NCBI GenBank assembly: GCA_019745315.1 | Contig: JAIETH010000001.1 | Location: 193,295 to 257,294 of the forward strand | Direction of reading: 5' to 3' | DNA: 64,000 nt | Origin: Patescibacteria group bacterium | Lineage (GTDB): Bacteria > Patescibacteriota > Minisyncoccia > Phycocordibacterales > UBA918 | Shown: positions 5,178 through 60,390 of the stretch, piece after piece | Layout of the letters: the number at the start of each line of letters is the position of its first letter | Numbering within the stretch: position 1 is the stretch's first letter | Translations under genes and position numbers: made by a program | Notes under the pieces: generated by a model | The model's input: only the letters and a program-made list of their open reading frames with translations | What the model was told of the DNA's origin: nothing | The model's database searches: none

Positions 5178-6512
5178 CTAGTTTCTATTGAGGAATTCTA
5201 TAGCTGCTTCAAACTGAGGATCTTTCTTAGCCTCACGATCTTCCTTGGTGAATTCAACTGTGACGTCTGGCGCAAGACCACCATTAGAGATCGAGCGACC
5301 GTTTGGAGTAAGCCAGCGAGCAATAGTGACCTTGAGAGAGGATCCTCCGGCAAGTGGCACCACCTCCTGTACAGAACCCTTCCCAAACGTGTGCGTACCT
5401 ATGAGAGTTGCGATTCCGTGCTCCTGAAGAGCTCCTGCAAGAATTTCAGAGGCCGATGCACTTCCTCCATCCACCAAGATCACGACATCAAAGTCTCTGT
5501 ATTGCTTAAGGTCTCTTCCTACGCTGCGATGCACCGTTTCTTCCTTTCCTTCACCAAAACTTTCTCGTACAACCACTTTCCCAGTCGGCAAGAAGTAACT
5601 TGCGATACCCACAGCACTCTGAAGATATCCCCCTGGATTACCACGGAGATCGATAATCAATTTTTGATTATCCCCTTGTATAAAGTCTCGAAGCGCGTCT
5701 TGCATTTGTGCTTCAGATGTCGCAGAGAAGTTATATAGACGAATAACAAAAGCTCCGTCTTTTTCTTCTGTCTTAATGGTAGGTATAACGATAGTATCTC
5801 GGGTCACTGTAATCTCTCGGAACTCTGAGTCTCCTTCGCGGTAGAAAGTAAGTTTAACCTGGCTCCCTTTTTCGCCTCGAATCTTTAACACAGCCTCATC
5901 TACACTCATCCCCTCAGTAGAGAGATCATCAATTTTTACCACTACGTCGCCACTCAATACACCCGCTTTTTCTGCAGGACTATCCGGAAGCGGTGCAATA
6001 ACCGTCACTGCATCATTTTGTATACCAACTTCCATGCCAACACCTCCAAACTCCCCTGCAATATTGTCAGCAAAGAGCTCAGCATCTTCTGGCGGCATAA
6101 ACACTGTATATGGATCACCGTATGACTTCACCAAGCCCTCCAGAGCGCCCCACATACGCTCCTGATCACTTAACGGGTCGGTTGTGGTAGAAACTACAAA
6201 GCGCTGATCGAGAAGCCCCCATACCTTCCAGAAGAGAGAAAGATCGACATCTTCTTTTGCAGCATATGAATCATCAAAGATAGAGCTTATGCTCATCTTT
6301 GAATCTCCTGTCATCGCACCAACTTGAATTCCAGAAAAAAATGTAGCGGTCGCAAACAGACATGCGAGTCCATATCCCAAGAGGGATTTTGTTTTTTTAG
6401 GCGCCTCGTGAGACACCGCTGTCTCTTCAGGTAAATGTTCCATCACAAAAGTATGCCATGGAAACGTATCTTCACAAAACAAATATGTGACGACAGTAAG
6501 TGCGTGATACAC
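5178..6512 (-). CDS. C-terminal processing peptidase (S41, Ctp/Prc family) with PDZ domain
   Basis: DLRGNPGG and GIGMEV motifs with a PDZ-like segment. The probable start is an internal Met (MEHLPEE, about 6443). Confidence 0.8.
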   Translation of the reverse strand: MYHALTVVTYLFCEDTFPWHTFVMEHLPEETAVSHEAPKKTKSLLGYGLACLFATATFFSGIQVGAMTGDSKMSISSIFDDSYAAKEDVDLSLFWKVWGLLDQRFVVSTTTDPLSDQERMWGALEGLVKSYGDPYTVFMPPEDAELFADNIAGEFGGVGMEVGIQNDAVTVIAPLPDSPAEKAGVLSGDVVVKIDDLSTEGMSVDEAVLKIRGEKGSQVKLTFYREGDSEFREITVTRDTIVIPTIKTEEKDGAFVIRLYNFSATSEAQMQDALRDFIQGDNQKLIIDLRGNPGGYLQSAVGIASYFLPTGKVVVRESFGEGKEETVHRSVGRDLKQYRDFDVVILVDGGSASASEILAGALQEHGIATLIGTHTFGKGSVQEVVPLAGGSSLKVTIARWLTPNGRSISNGGLAPDVTVEFTKEDREAKKDPQFEAAIEFLNRN

Positions 6513-39267: not shown

Positions 39268-40083
39268 CTATCTAAACGTCACTGTTCCGCTGTCGTACTT
39301 AAGTTCCAAGATGAGCTCACCACGGCTGGTGAAGAAAAAGGACGCGGTATTTTGGAGTAGCGCTATAAACTCTGATTCTTGCGAACCTTCACAGTACATT
39401 TTCGTAGAAACAATATTATCAAAAGTAATAAGGTTTTGATTTACCGAATAGCTTCCTCCCACGCTATTGCAATCAGTAGACGCGCTGAAGGTTTTGTCTG
39501 CATTGAATGTGAGCGCAAAAACATCTGGCTTTGTTGGGATAATTTCCCGCCCATCGTTATAAAGCGCTTTCTGCCACTTCCACTTTGTCATACCAAGTGT
39601 CATCCGATCTGGATCAGCTTCACCTTCAAAGCCGGTATCAAGAGCGAGCTTGCTCCCTTGTATGATTTCTTGATTACTATCAAGAACATAGAGCTTAGTT
39701 GGCTCAGATGTGAGACGCACGTACCGAATCTGCTTACCTTCTGGCTTCTGCCAATTGAGTACGTAGACGGTAGCGTCCACGTCATCTTTAAACCCTCGCT
39801 CAGTATTAAGCTCTCCAGTACGCACAAGACCATTCGTTTGGAGTCGATAGGTTGTGTAGTCTCTGTGTTCAAATACCACCTCCACCCTATCAACACGCGC
39901 AGCATATCGCTCAGTTGTCGGGCCCTCTTCCCATACCACTTCTTTTGCAGAAGTATCTACTGCCCCTGAGTCAGGAATCTCTGGAGCTGGCGCAGTAGCA
40001 CTCTCTTTGTTAAGCAAAAGAAATGCACACAGCCCTATGAGAGCCGCGACGAGAACAATAAGCATATATACTGCTTTTTTCAT
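39268..40083 (-). CDS. META (HslJ-like) domain lipoprotein/anchored protein
   Basis: The C-terminal region FNADKTFSASTDCNSVGGSYSVNQNLITFDNIVSTKMYCEG...FIALLQ matches the META domain. Confidence 0.65.
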   Translation of the reverse strand: MKKAVYMLIVLVAALIGLCAFLLLNKESATAPAPEIPDSGAVDTSAKEVVWEEGPTTERYAARVDRVEVVFEHRDYTTYRLQTNGLVRTGELNTERGFKDDVDATVYVLNWQKPEGKQIRYVRLTSEPTKLYVLDSNQEIIQGSKLALDTGFEGEADPDRMTLGMTKWKWQKALYNDGREIIPTKPDVFALTFNADKTFSASTDCNSVGGSYSVNQNLITFDNIVSTKMYCEGSQESEFIALLQNTASFFFTSRGELILELKYDSGTVTFR

Positions 40084-40090
40084 ATAGTAA

Positions 40091-40396
40091 TTATGTATCT
40101 TTTGGCAAACCCCACTGCCACTTTGGTTTTTCTCCTTTCTTGTAGGCTATAAAAATAAAAAGAATGGTAAGTACAATAAAAGGTAACCCCGACACTAAAA
40201 AATTACTTCCTGAATCAGGATTCCCTGGAATGGCTTCTTCTCTCACAAGCGCGAGAAGAGAGACGAGCGCGATGTACAGCGCTGTAGTGAACCATCCCTG
40301 CCAAGTTGCAGGTACCCATCCCCACCCCCATATCTTACGCTTAAACCAGTAGTGTTCGGGATTGTCTTGTATGTAATCAAGATATTTTTTAAACAT
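40091..40396 (-). CDS. small membrane protein
   Basis: 101 aa with 2 TM helices. Confidence 0.45.
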   Translation of the reverse strand: MFKKYLDYIQDNPEHYWFKRKIWGWGWVPATWQGWFTTALYIALVSLLALVREEAIPGNPDSGSNFLVSGLPFIVLTILFIFIAYKKGEKPKWQWGLPKDT

Positions 40397-40398
40397 GC

Positions 40399-40806
40399 TT
40401 ATGAGTGTGAATTTCGAAAAATCTTCTCCATTGGTCTCCCTTTTGCGAGCTCGTCAACAAGCTTATCGAGATAGCGCACCTCGCGCATGACCGTGTCCTC
40501 AATATCCTCTACCCGCACACCACAGACCATGCCGGTGATGAGTTTGCGTAAAGGGTTAGGCTTTGGAGCTTCCTTAAAGAAGGTCTCAAAATCCACTTCT
40601 TTTTTGATCTGTGAGCTCAACGCGCGTGCGGTGTATCCTGTCAGCCAACGGATGACTTCATCAACCTCTTCCTTGGTACGATCCTTCTTCTCTGCCTTAG
40701 CGATATACATTGGATAGACCTTTGCAAAGCTCATTGCATATACGCGCTTAAGAGTTGCTTCACTTGTTGGCTTCATACGTATAAGTATAGCAAAAAATAC
40801 CTCCAA
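40399..40806 (-). CDS. DUF2200 family protein
   Basis: [34 protein letters not shown] matches the DUF2200 consensus. The probable start is the internal MKPTSE. Confidence 0.55.
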
Positions 40807-40945
40807 GATGCGTGTGCGTTAAAAAAGACCATAGACTCCCATTCTACAGACATTGATCATATTAGAGACAGTGCGCGGTATACTATATTTTATGCGAAAA
40901 CATATACACCGTGCGTACCGGAAAGTATGCGATACATCCCCACAG

Positions 40946-41935
40946 ATGAAGCGAAAGATCCGTATCGCGTATGCCACACTCCTTGGTATCGCCATACTTT
41001 CAGGAGCAGCTATAGTCATGGTCGCCGAAATTCAGCTTAAGCGCCTTGAAGAAGCAGCGCGAATTCCAGAAGCCCCTCCATTCCCTATCAGCGTTAATCC
41101 TCAGCTCAAGACTATTTTTGAAAATCCTGAAGTCGATACCTATTTTGCTATCTATGTCTCTTCAGACTATAGCCGAAACAAGAAAATCAGCTGGCTTGAA
41201 GAAACGCTCGAAAAAATTGCCATATCACGTTGGTTTCAACAACTCGCTTCTCCGGTAGCGCGAGTACTCGTCATATATCCCGGAGAACGCAAAGAAGAAA
41301 TTGCTGAGGAATTTGGCGATATTCTCAAATGGGACGAGGAAGAGGAAGCTCGCTTTGTATCTCTTGTCGATCAGTCAATACCGAACCTTGATGAAGGAGT
41401 GTATTTCCCTGGACGATACCTGACTCACAAAGATGCTACTCCAGAGGAAATAGCGTCTCTAGTAACCACTGAATTTACTAGTGAACTTCTCAAGAGATAT
41501 CCTGAAGAACTCGCGGCTCAAATTCCGCTTAAAGAGACGCTTATCCTAGCCTCAATTCTTGAGCGTGAAGCGTATGACTTTACCGACATGCGAGAAATTT
41601 CGGGTATTATCTGGAACCGCCTTTTTATTGATATGAACCTCCAGCTTGATGCAACACTTCAGTATGCAAAAGCAGAAAAGACACCGGGAGTATGGTGGCC
41701 GCAGATAGTCCCGAAGGACAAGTATATTGAATCTCCATTTAATACTTACGAAAACGAAGGTCTTCCACCTGCACCAATTGCAAATCCTTCACTCGATGCA
41801 GTACTCGCAGCACTCAATCCCATAGAAACAAACTGCATGTTCTATTTTCATGATGACAATAGCAATTTCCATTGCAGTGTTACCTACGAAGAACATGTAG
41901 AGCTACTCAAGCAATACTACGGTCAAGGTCGGTAA
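40946..41935 (+). CDS. mltG: endolytic murein transglycosylase MltG (YceG-like)
   Basis: LILASILEREAY, YNTYENEGLPPAPIANPSLDA and ALNP motifs. N-terminal TM helix. Confidence 0.8.
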   Translation: MKRKIRIAYATLLGIAILSGAAIVMVAEIQLKRLEEAARIPEAPPFPISVNPQLKTIFENPEVDTYFAIYVSSDYSRNKKISWLEETLEKIAISRWFQQLASPVARVLVIYPGERKEEIAEEFGDILKWDEEEEARFVSLVDQSIPNLDEGVYFPGRYLTHKDATPEEIASLVTTEFTSELLKRYPEELAAQIPLKETLILASILEREAYDFTDMREISGIIWNRLFIDMNLQLDATLQYAKAEKTPGVWWPQIVPKDKYIESPFNTYENEGLPPAPIANPSLDAVLAALNPIETNCMFYFHDDNSNFHCSVTYEEHVELLKQYYGQGR

Positions 41936-41978
41936 ACCTTTTATTTAAGGCAAGATCAATCTGTGTAACTAGGTAGAT

Positions 41979-42491
41979 TTAGTTATCGATAACGATAACA
42001 TTTTCAATCTCTGTTGGCTCTTCAAACATATCAATAGTTTGCTGAACCAATTCCCTACTCACAACTGATCGGCTTGGATTCTTTTGATTATCCTCCCAAC
42101 GCTTCCATACTGTCTCAACAGATGATTGTATGTATATCACTTTGGTCTCAGCACCAACAGACTGTGTCACTTCTCGCAACCTGTCTCTACTGGCAACTGT
42201 TTGATTGGTCGAATCATAGAGTACGTTATTTCCATCTAGCAAAGCGCGCCTGGTCTTTTCGTATGACTCATTAAATATTTTTTCCCAATTATCCGCATCG
42301 GGCAGTATATTTGAATCCCAATTAAAGCCATGTGTGTGAAAGATATCATCAATACTCACAAACGCTATGTCAGTTTGTGTTTGTAACTGCTTTGCAATAT
42401 ACGATTTACCTGCATATGGAAAACCACACAAAATAAAAAGTGTTTTCTCTGAATCTTTTATAATTGAAACAATATTACCTAAATTTTGCAT
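41979..42491 (-). CDS. P-loop kinase-like protein (AAA_33 type)
   Basis: Walker A LCGFPYAGKS. Confidence 0.55.
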   Translation of the reverse strand: MQNLGNIVSIIKDSEKTLFILCGFPYAGKSYIAKQLQTQTDIAFVSIDDIFHTHGFNWDSNILPDADNWEKIFNESYEKTRRALLDGNNVLYDSTNQTVASRDRLREVTQSVGAETKVIYIQSSVETVWKRWEDNQKNPSRSVVSRELVQQTIDMFEEPTEIENVIVIDN

Positions 42492-42517
42492 TACTTAACT
42501 ATATAGAAATAATATAT

Positions 42518-42874
42518 CTAGCTTGTCTTTTTCAATGATCCTGCAAACTCAATATCAAGAGAAGATATCTTATCTTCAGCAAGCGCAACATAATAGACGA
42601 ACTTAGCGGGACTTGCGCTGAAGTCGCCACTCACGATTGTCTCAATGACCCAGGATTCATCTTTCTCTGTGACGTGAGAAATCTCTGTATCGAGATTCAG
42701 TCCTGACAACGATTTATCTATCCAAGCTGCAATTTGTTCTTTTCCACGCACCTCCTTACTCTCACCTCTATCAATAACAAGGGCGTCATCAGAAAACACA
42801 GAAAGCAAACCTTCTTTATTATGATTGTTCTTATGAAGGAAATATTCAGAAATAATATGTGGTAGATCGCTCAT
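42518..42874 (-). CDS. NTF2/SnoaL-like fold protein
   Basis: 118 aa with a SnoaL-like alpha+beta-barrel pattern. Confidence 0.45.
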   Translation of the reverse strand: MSDLPHIISEYFLHKNNHNKEGLLSVFSDDALVIDRGESKEVRGKEQIAAWIDKSLSGLNLDTEISHVTEKDESWVIETIVSGDFSASPAKFVYYVALAEDKISSLDIEFAGSLKKTS

Positions 42875-42900
42875 ATATTCAGTCTAGTTTTATGTTTCTG

Positions 42901-43245
42901 TTATATATCTGACCACACAGCCAGCTCATTACCGTCTGGATCAGCAAAATGAAAACGACGACCGCCAGGGAAGCTGAATATGTCTTTTGTTATATTTCCC
43001 GCAGCGGCTTCCACTTTTGCTTTCGTCTCTTCAAGATTATTTGAATACAGTATTACCAAAACACTTCCCTTAACTACCTCACCGAGAGCAAATCCTCCGT
43101 CTACACAATCACCTTCAAACGCAGTGTATTCAGTTCCGTAATCAGTAAATTTCCAACCGAATGCCTTTGTATAGAATTCTTTTATTGCGACTAAATTCGG
43201 TGAAAGAAATTCTATATATTGAATTTGCTCATGCGTAAGTTTCAT
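42901..43245 (-). CDS. glyoxalase/bleomycin-resistance (VOC) family protein
   Basis: FHFADPDGNELAVW is the typical VOC C-terminal motif. Confidence 0.7.
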   Translation of the reverse strand: MKLTHEQIQYIEFLSPNLVAIKEFYTKAFGWKFTDYGTEYTAFEGDCVDGGFALGEVVKGSVLVILYSNNLEETKAKVEAAAGNITKDIFSFPGGRRFHFADPDGNELAVWSDI

Positions 43246-43329
43246 AAAAATAGTATAGCAAAATTTATATAAAAGGTACCTGATCCCATTTCCCCATTTC
43301 CTTCAATAATAGAGTGGTGCTTGAGTAAA

Positions 43330-46146
43330 TTAGAAACCATATTTGTCCATACGGAGCTTGAACGCCGCACGGCCTCCCTCGGTGACTAATGTGATTTCTT
43401 CCTTGATCGCCTCGTTGTCGATTGCGCCAACCGCCTTGATTGCACCATGTGTCTGATCCCCAGCTTTCACGTAGTCGCAACAAACCACGAGTTCAGCATC
43501 GCCATTCACCACGAAGTTTGCGCTATGGCTTGCAAAGATAAGTTGTCGCTTGCTCTTTGCTTTCCATACTTGCTCGACAATTTCTCTAATCATTCGGCTG
43601 TCGATATCGTCCTCCGGCTGGTCGATGATGAGAGGCGCGCCCGGTTGATTGAGAAGCACAGTAAGCAATGCCGTTGCCTGTTGGCCGGCAGAAGCATCTT
43701 GGAATTCAATGTAGTCAGCTTTGGTCTTGTTGGTGCAGTACAAGAATTTGGGATTGAATTCGAGCTCGGCAACCGAAAGATCTATCCAGCTTGTCGAATC
43801 AAAGTTGGTAGCGATACGCGTGCGCTCGTTGTCGATAAATCCGCAGTTGTTGAGCACAGGAGTAGCCGGCAATGCTTCCGGTCCCTCCATGGAGTGAAGC
43901 GCGAGTTTTTCGAGCTCGGCTAGGATGCCGTTCCATTCAGCAAGCGGATCTGCGGCTTTCACTAGAGATTGGCAGATTTTGTCGATCTTATCCTCTTTGA
44001 TGTTCATGCCTGAAAAAGCGATCTTCAACTTTTGCGTGAGACGATCAGTGTCGAGACCGGTTGCGAGTTCCGCTTTGATCAGCCCGCCAGATAGAGCGGT
44101 GAATTGAGCACACTGCTTTTCGAGCGCGGCAATCTTCTGCGTGTGCAGGCCGTCCCATTTCTTGCGAAGTCCCTTGTATATCTTTTCCGGATCACCAAGA
44201 GCCGCAAGAGCATTGCGTTTTTCTGTCTGCTGTTTCTTAAGGATGGCGATACGCTTTTCAAGAGCCTGTATCTGATCAAGCTGTTGCTGATTGACGTTCG
44301 CTTTCGCTTTTGCCGCCTCGTACTTCTTTTCAAAAGCCGTCTTGAGCTTTTCCCATTCCTTTATCTCGTCATTGATTGCTTTGAGAGACGCCGGCTTGAA
44401 GAGGTCCGAGAGCGTGCTGACGGCCGTCTCGATCTGTGTAAATTTGGAACCAAACTTTGTGCGGATGCTCTTGATAAGAGCCTTGTTCTCCAGCTCGGCA
44501 TCTTCTTCTTCCTCATCCTCGGTTTCCAACGCTTCAACCAAAGTACCGACATGCTCTTGTGTCGTTTCGAGCTGATTCTTTAGATCATCAATGATAGTTT
44601 CTTCCTCGTCGTACTTTGCTTTCTGGTCGATGATTTTCTGATCGGCTTCAGAGAGACCCTTGAGACTCTTTCGCTGTTTGCCTACCTGTTCGGTAAGCGA
44701 AGCCATTTCAACGCTGTTTTTATTTACTTCCGTCTCGATCTCATTCATGCGAATAAGATCACCGTATGAGGAACGCATTTTTGCTTCAGTGTCGCGCACC
44801 TCGGACTTTATTTGGTCGAGTTCTTGCTTTATAGGCAACTCAACAAAACGCTTCAGTTCGTCGATGCGAACGCCGACGCTACTAAGTTGTTTCTGGCTGT
44901 ACGCTTGAATCGGGAGAAGATTCCGCACCTGTTGCTCTGTAGCTTGCTCGAAATCGCCATCACCAATCTTCAGCAATATTTCCTGTTTCTTGGAATTGCG
45001 CTTAACGATGTGTGGCACGTCATTGAGCAAGAATTCAACCTGTACCTCTCCGTCATGCTTTTGAAGCGTGTTGTCGATAAGGTGCTTGCGCTTGTTCTGC
45101 ACGATGTCCATGTCCTCGCTCTCCACCGGCTGATCACAAAGACCCCAGCGCAAGTATTCAAGAATTGTAGATTTGCCGGTTCCGCGTCCTCCAATGATTG
45201 CATTGTATTGCTGGTTCAAGTCGAGATCGACACGACCAAGGAACTTTGAATTTGAGACGGTAACCGAAGTGATCCAAAGATTAGGCATCAATGGCTCTAC
45301 CAGTGAAAGCCGAGACTCTTTTGCCAAGCAAGCCTGACGCAATGCTTCTGCGGTGGGCTCTGACCATTTTACGTATGTGATATGAGATCCGAGGTCCGAG
45401 TGATCGCGCTTACGATTATCGGATGTTTGAAAAACAGCAATCGGCTTGTATCCGTTGTTTTGCTGGCGTCCCTCAAGAATATTCTTCTTTCCGGTGCTGG
45501 TAGGCGCATAGTCTCCGTCGAGATATCCGCCGACACATCGCATCTCTTTGTAGTGCTTATCAAAACCGTCGCGGAAAAGCGTCTTATATCCGCCGTCCGT
45601 TACGTTGGGGAGAATAATAAATTTACCCTTGAGCCATTTGTGCTGATTGAGCTTGTCCTCAAGGTTGTTCAATCCGGTAAGTGCCGCCGGCGAAACGGAA
45701 TCGATGCTTGCAAGCTTGCTGTTGGTCTCAGGAGTAGCGTCAATGGTCAGTGCTGTAAGAATGTCATTCAACTTTGTTTCGTCAAAGTCTGCGCTAAGTA
45801 AAAGAATTGCTTGGCATGGTGGAGATGAAAGTGTGAGCTCGATACCTGGAAAGACAATAATCCGATCCTCTGGCGCAACATCCTCACCGATCAGATTAAC
45901 CTCTGATGCGGCCGCGGCTTTAACGTATGGGAAGAATGCAAAGTCGTGGTGATCGGTTATCGCAATAGCATTGAGACCTTTTGCTCGGCACGCCTGAATA
46001 AGCTCCTCTGCGTAAGCTTTTCTTTCTGCTGGTGTAGCGGCCTCATCTCCGTGCCAGTTTGCATCCCGTGGCGTATGGACTTGAAAATCGCATTTGTAGA
46101 AGTGTGCTCCTTTGTCCATAAAATGCATTTTAGCATTTTTAGACAT
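43330..46146 (-). CDS. PHP-domain phosphoesterase fused to SMC/SbcC-like ABC ATPase with coiled coil (938 aa)
   Basis: N-terminal PHP: CDFQVHTPRDANWHG...AIAITDHHD. Walker A GGRGTGKST after an N-box-like segment. About 300 aa of coiled coil. C-terminal signature SAGQQ, Walker B LIIDQPEDDID, H-loop ASHS. Confidence 0.8.
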   Translation of the reverse strand: MSKNAKMHFMDKGAHFYKCDFQVHTPRDANWHGDEAATPAERKAYAEELIQACRAKGLNAIAITDHHDFAFFPYVKAAAASEVNLIGEDVAPEDRIIVFPGIELTLSSPPCQAILLLSADFDETKLNDILTALTIDATPETNSKLASIDSVSPAALTGLNNLEDKLNQHKWLKGKFIILPNVTDGGYKTLFRDGFDKHYKEMRCVGGYLDGDYAPTSTGKKNILEGRQQNNGYKPIAVFQTSDNRKRDHSDLGSHITYVKWSEPTAEALRQACLAKESRLSLVEPLMPNLWITSVTVSNSKFLGRVDLDLNQQYNAIIGGRGTGKSTILEYLRWGLCDQPVESEDMDIVQNKRKHLIDNTLQKHDGEVQVEFLLNDVPHIVKRNSKKQEILLKIGDGDFEQATEQQVRNLLPIQAYSQKQLSSVGVRIDELKRFVELPIKQELDQIKSEVRDTEAKMRSSYGDLIRMNEIETEVNKNSVEMASLTEQVGKQRKSLKGLSEADQKIIDQKAKYDEEETIIDDLKNQLETTQEHVGTLVEALETEDEEEEDAELENKALIKSIRTKFGSKFTQIETAVSTLSDLFKPASLKAINDEIKEWEKLKTAFEKKYEAAKAKANVNQQQLDQIQALEKRIAILKKQQTEKRNALAALGDPEKIYKGLRKKWDGLHTQKIAALEKQCAQFTALSGGLIKAELATGLDTDRLTQKLKIAFSGMNIKEDKIDKICQSLVKAADPLAEWNGILAELEKLALHSMEGPEALPATPVLNNCGFIDNERTRIATNFDSTSWIDLSVAELEFNPKFLYCTNKTKADYIEFQDASAGQQATALLTVLLNQPGAPLIIDQPEDDIDSRMIREIVEQVWKAKSKRQLIFASHSANFVVNGDAELVVCCDYVKAGDQTHGAIKAVGAIDNEAIKEEITLVTEGGRAAFKLRMDKYGF

Positions 46147-46220
46147 CTATTAATATGACCCGTCTAGGTAACCAGGTACGATTTTTATGAGTGCTGGCTG
46201 TCTGGGACGATGTTAGAACT

Positions 46221-46775
46221 TTAATCATGAAATAAATAACTGAATGCTTGTTCTCGTGGCTTTTCAAAGTCATGCGAAATATCAAAATACTGAATTCCAA
46301 AATTTGCACACTCCTCTTTAAGATATTTGCTGAACTGAATCATTTCGTCAATTAATTTAAGCATTTCATCGTCAGAGATATTTTTTGTCCAATCCACTTC
46401 CCCTTGATGATATGTTCTTACCAAAGTAAGCTTCTCTTCCTTATTAAGTTCTGAATATCCGAGAAAACAACTTTTAACTTTATTGCCTTCAAGAATTAAC
46501 TCATTAACTTGACTAGGCAGAATCGTATCACCTTCAATGAGAAAATTATGTTCTTCATGAAAAAAGAATCCTAAAAGAGGTTTAGCTACTGGCCATGTTT
46601 TTTCTGCCCTCACAATGAACGACTGGTCGTAAGCCACACCTAGCTGCGGTGCTCCGTTTGCTAAGCCACCAAATAAAGCATCAAGTGGAAAATATGGAAT
46701 CCCCTTTTCAGATACTGCTCTCCTAGAAAGCAATGTTTTTCCTGAACGAGATGCACCACCAAGTATGTAGATCAT
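46221..46775 (-). CDS. P-loop NTPase/kinase-like protein
   Basis: Walker A GGASRSGKT at the N-terminus. 184 aa. Confidence 0.5.
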   Translation of the reverse strand: MIYILGGASRSGKTLLSRRAVSEKGIPYFPLDALFGGLANGAPQLGVAYDQSFIVRAEKTWPVAKPLLGFFFHEEHNFLIEGDTILPSQVNELILEGNKVKSCFLGYSELNKEEKLTLVRTYHQGEVDWTKNISDDEMLKLIDEMIQFSKYLKEECANFGIQYFDISHDFEKPREQAFSYLFHD

Positions 46776-46834
46776 AAGGAAAGTATAATGGTTCTAGCTG
46801 CTTAATCCTAACGAGAGTCCAACTAACAATTTTG

Positions 46835-46853
46835 CTGGGATACAGGGATTCGA
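46835..46853. repeat. direct partial copy of the tRNA-Gln 3' end (CTGGGATACAGGGATTCGA)
   Basis: 19/19 identity to 47079-47097. Confidence 0.7.
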
Positions 46854-46952
46854 TTCTTACAGAATCAGTACAGGTTGTCAGTATTTTAGTCCAAGTATTC
46901 CTAAAATACTAGGCAACCTTTTCTCACCCCATATCCTTCCGCTTGCGCACAG

Positions 46953-46980
46953 AAAAAACCGGCATAAAGCCGGCTTTCTT
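46953..46980. terminator. hairpin terminator CCGGC-ATAAA-GCCGG with flanking A-run and T-rich tract
   Basis: Seen directly in the sequence. Confidence 0.5.
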
Positions 46981-47033
46981 GAAATAGTCAGGATTCGACC
47001 TCGTCCCTCGGCACGACAGTCCCCCGGACTGTC

Positions 47034-47054
47034 GGTTCGAATCCCTGTATCCCA
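47034..47054. repeat. inverted 21-nt copy of the tRNA-Gln 3' end (GGTTCGAATCCCTGTATCCCA)
   Basis: Perfect reverse complement of 47079-47099, 24 nt away. A plus-strand tRNA cannot be formed. Confidence 0.7.
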
Positions 47055-47078
47055 TCTCTCATCACTACGTTCTTCGAG

Positions 47079-47149
47079 CTGGGATACAGGGATTCGAACC
47101 CCAATTAAAGGCTTCAAAGGCCTCTGTCCTACCATTAGACGATATCCCA
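47079..47149 (-). tRNA. tRNA-Gln (anticodon TTG)
   Basis: Reverse-strand sequence TGGGATATCGTCTAATGGTAGGACAGAGGCCTTTGAAGCCTTTAATTGGGGTTCGAATCCCTGTATCCCAG. 7-bp acceptor stem, U8, anticodon loop CTTTGAA, T-loop TTCGAAT. Confidence 0.85.
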
Positions 47150-47228
47150 AAAAATACTTCGACTAGAACGGTACTCTAGCGTTGCTCAATAGTGCCTTAT
47201 TTTTAAGCTCAAAACAAGACACTCCTCC

Positions 47229-48305
47229 CTATTCCTTTGTAGAAGGAATAGAGTCTATAACCGCGAGTTCAAGCGGGAGTACTGCGATATGTGTGCGGCC
47301 GACTTGGTCTGTGGCATCGAGAAAACGAAGGAGTGTTTTTGAGTTTATAAGTGTCTTTGGGTCTTTTGCAATCTCGCTAATTACAGCCTTATCTTCATCA
47401 CTAAAACTTGATAGATATTCCTCTGCATCACTCGGGGCATTTCTCTTTAGAATCACTGCGCGCATACGCTCAAGCAAAAGTCGTGCAAAGAGTTTCATGT
47501 CTATTGCCATCTCACCCGCCTCTCGTAAAGCCGCAAGTGCTTTCTCTGTAGAGTGCTCATGAATACCAGATACTACATTCATAATGAGTGCACTTCGCGG
47601 AGCACCTATGATAGCGGCTACCTCATCTGCTCCAGCCTTCGTATCAGGAGAGGCGGTGATTACCTTTTGCGTGATACCAAGCGCGTCTCTGAAAGAACCG
47701 TCTGCTGCTGCAGCAACGAGATCAGCTCCGTCAGGAGAAAGAGTAAATGCTTCGGATTTCGCAACTCCAATTATATGATCACGAAGCATTGCGCGTGTCG
47801 GCGCCTTAAAGCGATACACCTGACAGCGAGAAACGATGGTCTCAAGAAGTTTTTCTACCTCTGTGGTGGCAAGGATAAATACAACATGACGTGGAGGTTC
47901 TTCCAAGGTTTTTAAAAGTGCATTGAATGCTTCTTTGGTGAGCATGTGTACCTCGTCAATGATGTATACCTTTTGAGCTGACTCATATGGAAGAGTGAGG
48001 ACTGCCTCACGGAGCACACGCACATCGTCAATACCGCGGTTTGAAGCGGCATCTATTTCATAGATATCAATTTCTTTGGTACCAATCTCTCGCGCAAAGA
48101 TACGCGCAATACTGGTCTTTCCTGTACCACGAGGTCCTGCAAAGAGAAGTGCGTGCGGTACCTGTCCTTTTTGTATCGCTCCAGAGAGAGCGGTTACCAC
48201 ATGATCCTGTCCACGCACATCAGCAAATGACGCCGGGCGATACTTACGATACAGAACAGTGTGTTCTACCGCAGCAGCTTCATGTGTATCACTTTTTTTC
48301 TTCAT
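47229..48305 (-). CDS. dnaX: DNA polymerase III subunit gamma/tau (short form)
   Basis: HALLFAGPRGTGKTSIARIFAREI. 358 aa, with no tau C-terminal domains. Confidence 0.9.
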   Translation of the reverse strand: MKKKSDTHEAAAVEHTVLYRKYRPASFADVRGQDHVVTALSGAIQKGQVPHALLFAGPRGTGKTSIARIFAREIGTKEIDIYEIDAASNRGIDDVRVLREAVLTLPYESAQKVYIIDEVHMLTKEAFNALLKTLEEPPRHVVFILATTEVEKLLETIVSRCQVYRFKAPTRAMLRDHIIGVAKSEAFTLSPDGADLVAAAADGSFRDALGITQKVITASPDTKAGADEVAAIIGAPRSALIMNVVSGIHEHSTEKALAALREAGEMAIDMKLFARLLLERMRAVILKRNAPSDAEEYLSSFSDEDKAVISEIAKDPKTLINSKTLLRFLDATDQVGRTHIAVLPLELAVIDSIPSTKE

Positions 48306-59910: not shown

Positions 59911-59991
59911 GCCGGAGTGGTGGAATGGTATACACGGTGGATTCAAAACCCACTGCCGCAAGGCTTGAGAGTTCAAGTCTCTCCTCCGGCA
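59911..59991 (+). tRNA. tRNA-Leu (anticodon CAA)
   Basis: GCCGGAG acceptor stem pairing with CTCCGGC. Anticodon loop TTCAAAA. Long variable arm. T-arm GAGAG-TTCAAGT-CTCTC. Discriminator A. Confidence 0.8.
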
Positions 59992-59994
59992 CAA

Positions 59995-60185
59995 AGAGCG
60001 AAGCGACTATGTGCCGTAAAAAGTGCTTGCACTTTTTAGGAGAGACTTGAAGACCTTGCGAGCTATCTTTTCAAGTTTTTACGCAGAAAAGTAGCCACAA
60101 GGTGTACAGATCCTGTAAGGATCAAGTCTCATAAGGCAGAGCGAAGCGAAGTATTGTGACGGAGGAGAGACTTGAAGGCCGCAGA
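59995..60185. repeat. degenerate repeat units downstream of tRNA-Leu, including antisense (60038-60052, 60163-60177) and sense (60121-60131) partial copies of its T-arm
   Basis: AGAGCGAAGCGA occurs at 59995 and 60138. AGGAGAGACTTGAAG occurs at 60038 and 60163, and is the reverse complement of TTCAAGTCTCTCCT in the tRNA. A hairpin AAAAAGTGC-TT-GCACTTTTT sits at 60018-60037. Confidence 0.6.
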
Positions 60186-60190
60186 TACAC

Positions 60191-60224
60191 AAAAATAAAC
60201 AGCCTGGGAGGCTGTTTATTTTTG
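60191..60224. terminator. bidirectional terminator AAACAGCCT-GGG-AGGCTGTTT with A- and T-runs
   Basis: Seen in the sequence. Confidence 0.65.
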
Positions 60225-60390
60225 TGTATCGAGGCGGGGTCGCAGAAATTTTGCTCAAAGCAAAATTATCTGTGACCAAGTCTTTCTCGTCCCAATTGAC
60301 CCCCACACCCTATCGTGCTTTACTCTCGGCAGAACAGAGAACACTGATCCAATTGCACCCGCAATTAGATCACAGGAACAGGAGCAAAAA

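Follow-up and report, generated by a model that had tools for sequence, protein, structure and literature searches.

A tRNA-Gln tail repeat in a Patescibacteria genome as a probable recombinase-less end module of large serine recombinase elements

Genomic islands in tRNA genes, as catalogued by Islander, are usually driven by tyrosine integrases (PMC4383910). For the tycheposons of Prochlorococcus, 910 of 937 elements use tyrosine recombinases and 27 of 937 a large serine recombinase (LSR) (bioRxiv 10.1101/2020.12.28.424599). Here we analysed a 64-kb stretch of a Patescibacteria genome (the window; contig JAIETH010000001.1, positions 193,295 to 257,294), in which a 315-bp feature at the tRNA-Gln gene carries the tail of that tRNA two more times, once in direct and once in inverted orientation, around a set of hairpins. 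To our knowledge, few mobile elements have been characterised in the tiny-genome Patescibacteria (candidate phyla radiation, CPR). In the library that we searched, no paper connects Patescibacteria or CPR with both serine recombinases and tRNA genes.

A comparison with tRNA islands and prophages shows common features: one end has an intact tRNA and the opposite end a displaced copy of the 3′ part of this tRNA, the tail would be supplied by the element, and tandem arrays form through repeated use of the site, here in locus L211 (PMC4383910). Unlike in those islands, the full-length relatives of our feature carry an LSR with an open reading frame (ORF) running antisense into the tRNA tail. A hairpin module with an inverted tail copy forms the distal end, and most copies are gene-free and only 100-200 nt long. 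Tycheposons, compared here by their architecture, are likewise small cargo-carrying elements at tRNA genes of streamlined genomes; they also leave partial tRNAs behind, older elements are displaced outward by more recent ones, and an LSR drives a minority of them (bioRxiv 10.1101/2020.12.28.424599). Their host phylum is different, and neither a structured end module nor a target-matched inverted repeat is described for them. The LSRs of phiC31, Bxb1, TP901-1 and the CcrAB type share the Resolvase, Recombinase and Zn ribbon domain set with the enzymes reported below. Known attP and attB sites of LSRs are short duplexes without accessory hairpins, and their targets are mostly protein-coding genes. 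In our family, in contrast, the target would be the T-psi-C loop (T-loop) of a tRNA, attL would be attB-like and attR attP-like over the tail, and the arm at the junction differs between two module types, A and B. The natural dyad symmetry of the T-arm makes it plausible that the crossover, as for known LSRs, spans 2 bp within a quasi-palindromic site.

We propose that the 315-bp feature is probably a copy, without recombinase and cargo, of the module that forms the distal end of Patescibacteria LSR elements inserted in the tRNA T-loop. The proposal builds on the architecture of the module, which recurs behind tRNAs of 17 kinds, on two repeats that each match the tRNA beside them, on the LSR genes of full-length relatives and on the strong conservation of the core. 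At the window locus (Table 1; coordinates are positions in the window, and module parts are read on the minus strand, which is that of tRNA-Gln) an intact tRNA bounds the feature on one side and its 3′ part, repeated in direct orientation, on the opposite side, the arrangement by which tRNA-integrating elements are recognised. The direct copy agrees with the tail at 20 of 20 positions (GCTGGGATACAGGGATTCGA on the plus strand). The inverted copy is complementary to 47080-47100 at 21 of 21 positions, lies 23 nt from the tRNA and can be extended to 25 nt at 96% identity. The tail 19-mer has three window matches with up to 3 mismatches, while each of 100 shuffles has 0. The region folds better than shuffled sequence, with z = -7.8 for the minus strand including the tRNA and z = -10.3 for the plus strand.

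An earlier, sequence-only reading of this stretch had described both copies, together with the hairpin GACAGTCC-CCC-GGACTGTC and a CCGGC/GCCGG stem, and all four are present. It also reported an 18-bp near-perfect inverted repeat at 46861-46907. A long AT-rich hairpin does exist, but its arms are at 46873-46889 and 46901-46918, and with its internal loop it falls short of near-perfect. Missing from that list was a small fourth hairpin at 46852-46866, GATTC-TGTAA-GAATC. The T-run of the CCGGC stem (TTTTTTCT) is on the minus strand, and termination would therefore be in the direction of the tRNA. This terminator-like hairpin occupies the place usual for the tail-terminator-inverted repeat unit of the family, and its 3′ half and T-run are also found in the related locus L215. 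No terminator is present in the 23-nt spacer, in contrast to most family members. No protein-sized ORF is found in the 224 bp between the repeats, where the only listed ORF (46878-47150, 90 aa) overlaps the tRNA.

The same arrangement is found in relatives. The gene order from holB, as we call the neighbouring gene for a DNA polymerase III gamma/tau-like ATPase, to tRNA-Gln is kept in 55 related loci. A second tail copy in the same orientation follows the tRNA in 13 of them, at 111-257 nt in 8 cases, and matches the tRNA-Gln of its own species every time; the other 42 loci are without a second copy. The intervals between tRNA-Gln and tail copy consist of conserved blocks of two kinds, type A and type B, and the window copy belongs to type B. 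The type-B block with its hairpin H3 follows the pattern TGTACNGATYCTGTAAGRATCGA, which occurs in at least 120 metagenome contigs and is matched exactly by the window copy. The window has the type-B core AAGG-H2-TGTAC-H3(GATYC-TGTAA-GRATC)-GA, preceded on the tRNA strand by the reverse complement of the local tail and followed by its direct copy, as in the rest of the type-B family. An nhmmer profile of this core gives two matches in the window, at 46930-46849 (E = 3e-13) and at 60042-60123 (E = 1.1e-13).

Our family survey covers 112 distinct modules, for which a tRNA was sought on the same strand up to 220 nt upstream. Such a tRNA is present for 49 modules, with 17 amino-acid identities represented, while 22 modules are too near a contig end to be assessed. 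The parts follow a constant order. The tRNA and a terminator hairpin are followed by IR1 (inverted repeat 1), which is complementary to the 3′ strand of the local acceptor stem, by the 9-bp hairpin H1, which is optional, and by IR2, which is complementary to the T-loop and to the 3′ strand of the T-stem of the local tRNA (e.g. GGGATTCGAA). Then come AAGG or AACC with the long variable hairpin H2, TGTAC with H3 (GATCC-TGTAA-GGATC) and GA, an optional hairpin H4, and finally the directly repeated tail, made up of the 3′ strands of the local T-stem and acceptor stem and the discriminator. The two repeats belong to the tRNA next to them. The longest exact match of the distal copy has a median of 9 nt against its own tRNA tail and 4 nt against other tRNAs; matches of at least 10 nt occur in 23 of 49 own-tRNA comparisons and in 1 of 536 others. 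For the inverted copy, matches of at least 7 nt are found in 42/49 and 29/536 comparisons, respectively. The inverted copy is thus a regular part of the module and not an oddity of this locus. Nor is the locus a private scar, since a large family stands after tRNAs of 17 identities and also after tRNA-Leu in the same window.

The profile match at this second site lies 50 nt past tRNA-Leu(CAA) and belongs to a type-B module. Its IR2 is the complement of the T-loop and T-stem of tRNA-Leu, and both IR2 and the junction (GGATC|AAGTCTC) follow the unusual TTCAAGT loop of this tRNA. As the junctions at tRNA-Leu follow its own T-loop, the boundary between the conserved element and the tRNA-derived sequence would lie just after C56. 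A type-A module stands further downstream. Its 21-nt inverted repeat is the complement of the Leu tail with one mismatch. This module was assigned by eye; a type-A profile made from 4 sequences did not reach it. Both tRNAs of the window, tRNA-Gln and tRNA-Leu, are occupied in this way.

Full-length elements supply the link to a recombinase. In L144 and L145, tRNA-Ser(GCU) is followed by a gene on the opposite strand for a 531-aa protein and by cargo of about 3.5 kb, and the element closes with a terminator, then a type-B module and a tail copy. The protein has Resolvase, Recombinase and Zn_ribbon_recom domains, and its last codons run antisense through the tRNA tail. A 7.5-kb element in L179 lies between tRNA-Glu and a type-B module with tail, and its recombinase is 34% identical to that of L144. 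The 4.4-kb element of L207 at tRNA-Ser closes with a type-A module and tail, while L211 has a tandem array of three recombinases with repeated type-A modules and tails. LSR 3′ ends overlap tRNA tails in L207, at tRNA-Ser(GGA) in L208-210 and at tRNA-Arg(CCU) in L162; in L193 the 3′ end is found beside tRNA-Arg(GCG). An integration footprint, a miniature element or repeated use of the site, as the sequence-only reading offered, fits with such LSR-bearing relatives bounded by an intact tRNA and a tail copy; the notion of a scar private to this locus does not.

The LSR family is large, with 4957 homologs at E <= 1e-20, and the source names are mostly from Patescibacteria. Among the closest 120 of these 4957, most C-termini read ..CGxGGIRT.., the antisense translation of the tail and T-arm of tRNA-Ser, which suggests that this clade (>=70% identity) is specific for tRNA-Ser. 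Where the C-terminus is an antisense tRNA tail, the target should be readable from the protein sequence of the LSR. Gene prediction for these 120 homologs continues antisense into the tRNA or the module beside it, so that protein lengths range from 419 to 693 aa. We also observed that the LSR gene is bracketed by inverted repeats of 134-140 nt with 99% complementarity (L207, 9846-9979/11390-11523; L144, 4584-4721/6132-6269; likewise in L208-L211). The arm that adjoins the tRNA tail codes for about the final 50 residues. Judging from this layout, the LSR gene could be an invertible segment.

Based on these data, we suggest the following mechanism. The element would recombine with the T-loop of the tRNA at about C56/R57, where the identity between tRNA and module junctions begins (TC|GAAT.. 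for tRNA-Gln and C|AAGT.. for tRNA-Leu). It would supply its own tail copy, leaving the tRNA intact (47078-47097) and regenerating a tRNA-like target at the junction, while the original tail would be pushed outward to its present place after the module (46834-46853). The module itself would consist of the reverse complement of the local tail (47034-47054) and the conserved hairpins H1, H2 and H3, the last of which would abut the crossover. The distal junction, with the core and then the original tail, appears to resemble the site of the element itself, so that H3 with the tail would be a junction of the attR/attP type. Tail replacement and such a distal junction together would account for the direct repeat, the tandem arrays and the displaced tail. 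The short forms may derive from full elements or be mobilised by them, and the core may either act through a structure of one strand, be it RNA or single-stranded DNA, or play an accessory part in recombination.

The window feature is then an ordinary, immobile, recombinase-less member of the module family and not a unique structure. It cannot move alone, because no recombinase is found between the repeats or anywhere in the 64 kb; tblastn gave no LSR match in the whole window, over which tyrosine integrases were not searched. The family is widespread and apparently undescribed as an end module of tRNA-targeting integrative elements. Our analysis suggests that many tRNA genes of Patescibacteria are trailed by small modules of a family of cargo-carrying, T-loop-inserting LSR elements. 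If confirmed, this would provide a handle on gene flow in Patescibacteria, a means to annotate hundreds of puzzling tRNA-tail repeats, which break assemblies too, and a set of compact recombinases whose target sites derive from tRNAs and can be predicted.

Several observations weigh against this proposal. No recombinase, cargo or excision product is seen at the tRNA-Gln locus of the window, and the link to an LSR comes from relatives at tRNA-Ser, tRNA-Glu and tRNA-Arg, with no LSR-bearing element recovered at tRNA-Gln. In the survey, 41/112 modules are without a detected tRNA within 220 nt, several of them clearly following partial or undetected tRNAs. The junction-side arm is wholly different in type A (..CGTGACC) and type B (..GTAAGGATC). 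LSRs that are 74-76% identical use either type (L144 vs L207/L211), and LSRs that are only 41% identical share identical type-A modules. An arm that does not track the LSR is hard to reconcile with its being the recognition site. Known LSR att sites are 40-50 bp of duplex DNA; this explains neither a hairpin core of 100-150 nt with covariation nor an inverted tail copy about 90 nt away from the junction. Our model also has no explanation for how an element would gain a new tail and the matching inverted copy when it changes its target. The hairpin core and the exact inverted copy of the target, which current LSR knowledge does not account for, may point to an additional mechanistic layer.

Judged by its sequence, the core is under constraint, as it is conserved between the window and L215 and its hairpins covary across the family. 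It may act as an accessory recombination site, an RNA or a single-stranded DNA structure. Among the alternatives, a structured RNA gene, or a structure of one DNA strand, that mimics acceptor and T-stem with H2 and H3 in place of the T-loop and is carried or used by LSR elements appears possible, though we consider it rather unlikely. Such an RNA would be read through from the tRNA or the cargo and processed like a tRNA, and it is compatible with the LSR-element explanation. Inverted and direct copies can pair into an acceptor-like and a T-stem-like helix that closes H1, H2 and H3; the minimum free energy fold of the L215 module has these parts (acceptor-like stem, H1, T-stem-like helix, H2 and H3; z = -7.2). 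Across 89 distinct segments of the family, H2 is a hairpin of median 17 bp and median z = -3.5, kept at a median pairwise identity of 0.51, and 10 of the 18 pairs of the consensus fold are kept through changes on both sides. The tRNA-sense strand is the better folded one in 65 modules vs 27 for its complement (Wilcoxon p = 0.001). Many H2 have tandem GA/GA internal loops, and the H3 loop UGUAA presumably resembles a T-loop motif. The near identity of the core in window and L215 and its type, which is independent of LSR phylogeny, also favour this alternative.

On the other side, no promoter is evident and a terminator usually stands directly upstream of the module. Rfam gave no match for the type-A and type-B cores, neither ribozyme nor riboswitch, and the best hits were miRNA models on the long hairpin far below gathering scores. 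At G.U pairs and mismatches of the tRNA stems, the inverted repeat complements the 3′ strand exactly in 18 cases, against 4 in which it follows the tRNA 5′ strand, as an inverted repeat at the DNA level predicts; pairing of RNA is also compatible with this. An origin of the inverted repeat as a copy of the tRNA 5′ strand was rejected by the same 18 to 4 count. Furthermore, the fold is disrupted in the window by an extra block of 82 nt. The pairing of 5′ and 3′ segments into an acceptor-like stem and a T-stem-like helix is reminiscent of transfer-messenger RNA (tmRNA) and tRNA-like RNAs. Unlike those, our module has no T-loop, no G3:U70 and no tag reading frame. ARAGORN and Rfam do not support a tRNA, tmRNA or permuted tmRNA on either strand, nor any Rfam family; the sequence-only reading had also found no plus-strand tRNA or tmRNA. 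The likeness of GGATTCGA to a tmRNA 5′ motif comes from the near-palindromic T-loop.

A passive, decaying scar of one past integration or excision at tRNA-Gln without present function, close to what the sequence-only reading named first, is improbable and largely refuted by conservation. In favour of a scar, a directly duplicated tRNA 3′ end is the trace that att sites classically leave, neither recombinase nor cargo lies between the repeats, and the middle part is rearranged relative to L215 and has a decayed tail-like piece. L215 (GCA_039740995.1; holB 77% identical) is the closest genome that retains the locus; an identical tRNA-Gln (72/72) is followed there by one canonical module. In the alignment with the window, spacer and first 11 nt of the inverted copy (TGGGATACAGG, common to both) are identical at 28/34 positions, the spacer alone at 17/23 (74%). 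Then an 82-nt block present only in the window (47043-46962) includes the rest of the inverted copy, H1, the tail-like piece and the 5′ half of the terminator. The tail-like piece is GTCGAATCCTGACTATTTCAAG, which follows GTGCC-GAGGGACGAG within 46978-47013 and which we infer to be a decayed tail copy. The stretch just upstream of the core is poorly conserved, with a match in about 10 of 26 columns. In contrast, AAAAGG-H2-H3-tail is identical at 87/89 positions (98%) although holB is only 77% identical, and the core is therefore not decaying. The scar is also contradicted by the exact tail copy and inverted copy and by the same module after many tRNAs with covarying hairpins. The sequence-only reading had itself named conservation with compensatory changes as the mark of a functional structure rather than an att scar, and this is what we observed.

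The window locus departs from the canonical type-B order of tRNA, terminator, IR1-(H1)-IR2, H2, H3 and tail. It has the tRNA, spacer, an uninterrupted inverted repeat, H1, an IR2-like part, the decayed tail, the terminator, a second inverted-repeat-like part, H2, H3 and the tail. It looks like two fused miniature elements, the proximal one without H2 and H3; an insertion into a module of the L215 type would explain it equally. The window-specific block contributes part of the perfect 21-nt inverted copy.

Quite improbable, in our view, is a further reading in which the module functions as a structured nucleic acid, either RNA or one folded strand of DNA, offers the target tail in duplex form and serves as a cofactor of the LSR. 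The module might then be a scaffold or guide that joins the element end to the tRNA T-loop, or a priming or processing signal. If true, this would account for the interchange of type A and type B between LSR clades and for the exactness of the tail complement, and would represent a serine-recombinase system with a target-matched nucleic-acid cofactor. The bridge RNA of IS110 and the omega RNA of TnpB-IscB are similar in that a structured scaffold at the element end is flanked by target-matching segments, with the target complement often split by a hairpin (here IR1-H1-IR2). Unlike in those systems, no DEDD- or RuvC-type protein is associated here and the two target-matching segments are mutually complementary. 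LSR clades track the tRNA target, which points to specificity encoded in the protein. RNA-programmed targeting is disfavoured for the same reason, as recombinase clades track tRNA identity. An IS110 bridge RNA or TnpB omega RNA system was rejected, as the associated protein is of the Resolvase + Recombinase + Zn_ribbon kind; no DEDD recombinase and no TnpB/IscB nuclease was seen beside the modules examined.

A miniature inverted-repeat transposable element with its own terminal inverted repeats and a target duplication of about 20 bp is very improbable. The 18-nt arms at 46836-46853 and 47037-47054 do look like such ends around a body of about 180 bp, but they differ between copies in step with the local tRNA, which is contrary to how transposon ends behave. 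The modules are associated with a serine recombinase and with no transposase. Serine recombinases make no long target duplication. An assembly artefact by mis-joining at a repeated tRNA segment is hardly credible: the contig of one relative (L212) does break inside tRNA-Gln, so that assemblers struggle at the locus, but an independent short assembly (L001, Logan SRR15085126) has the same sequence across 46009-46965, L215 has the orthologous arrangement and the same architecture is found in more than 100 independent contigs.

Further candidates were rejected. On inspection, CUGAU...GAA does not satisfy the core consensus of a hammerhead, and a retroviral-type primer-binding site is not supported, as the inverted copy stops short of discriminator and CCA by inspection. 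For a phage attP, the type-B pattern has no match in viral contigs, and five matches of a type-A 16-mer are chance hits in GC-rich coding DNA. A group I intron in the T-loop was rejected because the tRNA introns described in Patescibacteria, which are group I introns, are at position 35/36 and much larger (PMC13011429).

Table 1. Positions of the features at the two module-bearing tRNA genes of the window; roles refer to the proposed model.
Feature	Position	Strand	Remarks
tRNA-Gln(UUG)	47078-47149	minus	ARAGORN; Rfam RF00005, 62.8 bits
Proximal tail copy, last 20 nt of tRNA-Gln	47078-47097	minus	Repeat family D1; would be the element-supplied replacement tail, attL side
Spacer, 23 nt, between tRNA-Gln and inverted copy	47055-47077	minus	17/23 identical to L215 spacer
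Inverted repeat, exact reverse complement of tRNA positions ~52-72 (T-stem, T-loop, acceptor 3′ strand)	47034-47054	minus	Repeats I1 and I2; first 11 nt common to L215, remainder inside the window-only block
H1 hairpin CGACAGTCC-GGG-GGACTGTCG	47014-47034	minus	Repeat I10; family H1 class ..CAGTC-YGGGR-GACTG.., as in L124, L159, L180 and L090
GTGCC-GAGGGACGAG	46978-47013	minus	Resembles a second T-stem/T-loop complement, of the GGGACGAGAA variant, by comparison with L142/L189 and type-A 5′ ends
Hairpin like a Rho-independent terminator, GCCGG-CTTTAT-GCCGG then TTTTTTCT	46951-46976	minus	Stem 46959-46973
GGATA-TGGGG-TGAGAA	46921-46936	minus	Apparent second mimic of acceptor/T-stem 5′ side, immediately before the core; nhmmer match begins here
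H2, AAGG and long hairpin GGTTGCC-TAGTATTTTAG...CTAAAATACTG-ACAACC	46873-46920	minus	Repeat I5; identical in L215
TGTAC, H3 hairpin GATTC-TGTAA-GAATC and GA	46850-46872	minus	Most conserved block of type-B modules; would be the element-side arm beside the crossover
Distal direct copy of tRNA-Gln tail, 20/20	46834-46853	minus	D1; would be the displaced original tail, attR side
tRNA-Leu(CAA)	59911-59992	plus	Second module-bearing tRNA of the window
Type-B module after tRNA-Leu	60011-60130	plus	IR1 GTGCCG, H1, IR2 GAGAGACTTGAA, H2, TGTAC-H3, 7-nt tail stub AAGTCTC; nhmmer E = 1.1e-13
Type-A module after tRNA-Leu	60156-60292	plus	21-nt inverted repeat GTGACGGAGGAGAGACTTGAA, core ..CGAGGCGGGGTCGCAG..CTGTGACC, decayed tail AAGTCTTTCTCGTCC

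The genes next to tRNA-Gln are core genes, namely holB (47229-48305), a DD-carboxypeptidase and Dus. The relatives of holB are all from Patescibacteria of the Paceibacteria kind and at best 60-68% identical among species representatives. L214, with holB also 77% identical, has a different tRNA-Gln with no module after it. A near-identical strain with an empty site was not found; L212, whose contig ends inside tRNA-Gln, is a 97%-identical relative, and this contig end suggests that such repeats break short-read assemblies.

Beyond the distal repeat lies a gene for a PHP + ATPase protein of 938 aa (43330-46146, minus strand) with a PADLOC match to the anti-phage defence system Ppl (E = 1.7e-37). 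It is part of a stretch of about 40900-46800 without counterpart downstream of tRNA-Gln in most relatives. The sequence-only reading had raised a possible tie of the repeats to this island. No such link was found: the distal repeat does not enclose the island, and the interval from 40000 to 46834 has no additional tail copy and no additional module. The distal tail copy is immediately followed by a 184-aa ORF (46221-46775, minus strand) with a P-loop-like GxxxxGKT by eye and no Pfam or PADLOC match; an identical copy of its protein is present in one Logan contig only.

Some variants of the module were observed as well. The optional hairpin H4 is found just after H3 in L087, L106, L139, L125 and others (e.g. 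TAGCGTAATCGCG and AAGCGTACTCGCGG), and contains TAGCGT, which we take to resemble the CS-6 loop motif of single-strand origins in rolling-circle plasmids. In direct-type copies (L005 2880-3000, L017 7900-8031, L020 9830-9990, L100, L115, L126 and L089/L117) the core is preceded by a direct partial copy of the tRNA body, from the D/anticodon arm to the T-stem 5′ strand, and not by an inverted tail. These look like a tRNA pseudogene with about 110 nt in its T-loop and are often just upstream of an intact tRNA. In L213, at about 5395-5470, an incomplete copy of tRNA-Gln, immediately upstream from the genuine gene, carries an H1-type hairpin (GTAGAATAGTCTGGGAGACTATTCTAC) in its D-loop; the hairpin adjoins a 234-aa ORF that is LAGLIDADG-type endonuclease-like by eye. 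The hairpin class ..AGTC-YGGGR-GACT.. occurs at several different positions in these loci.

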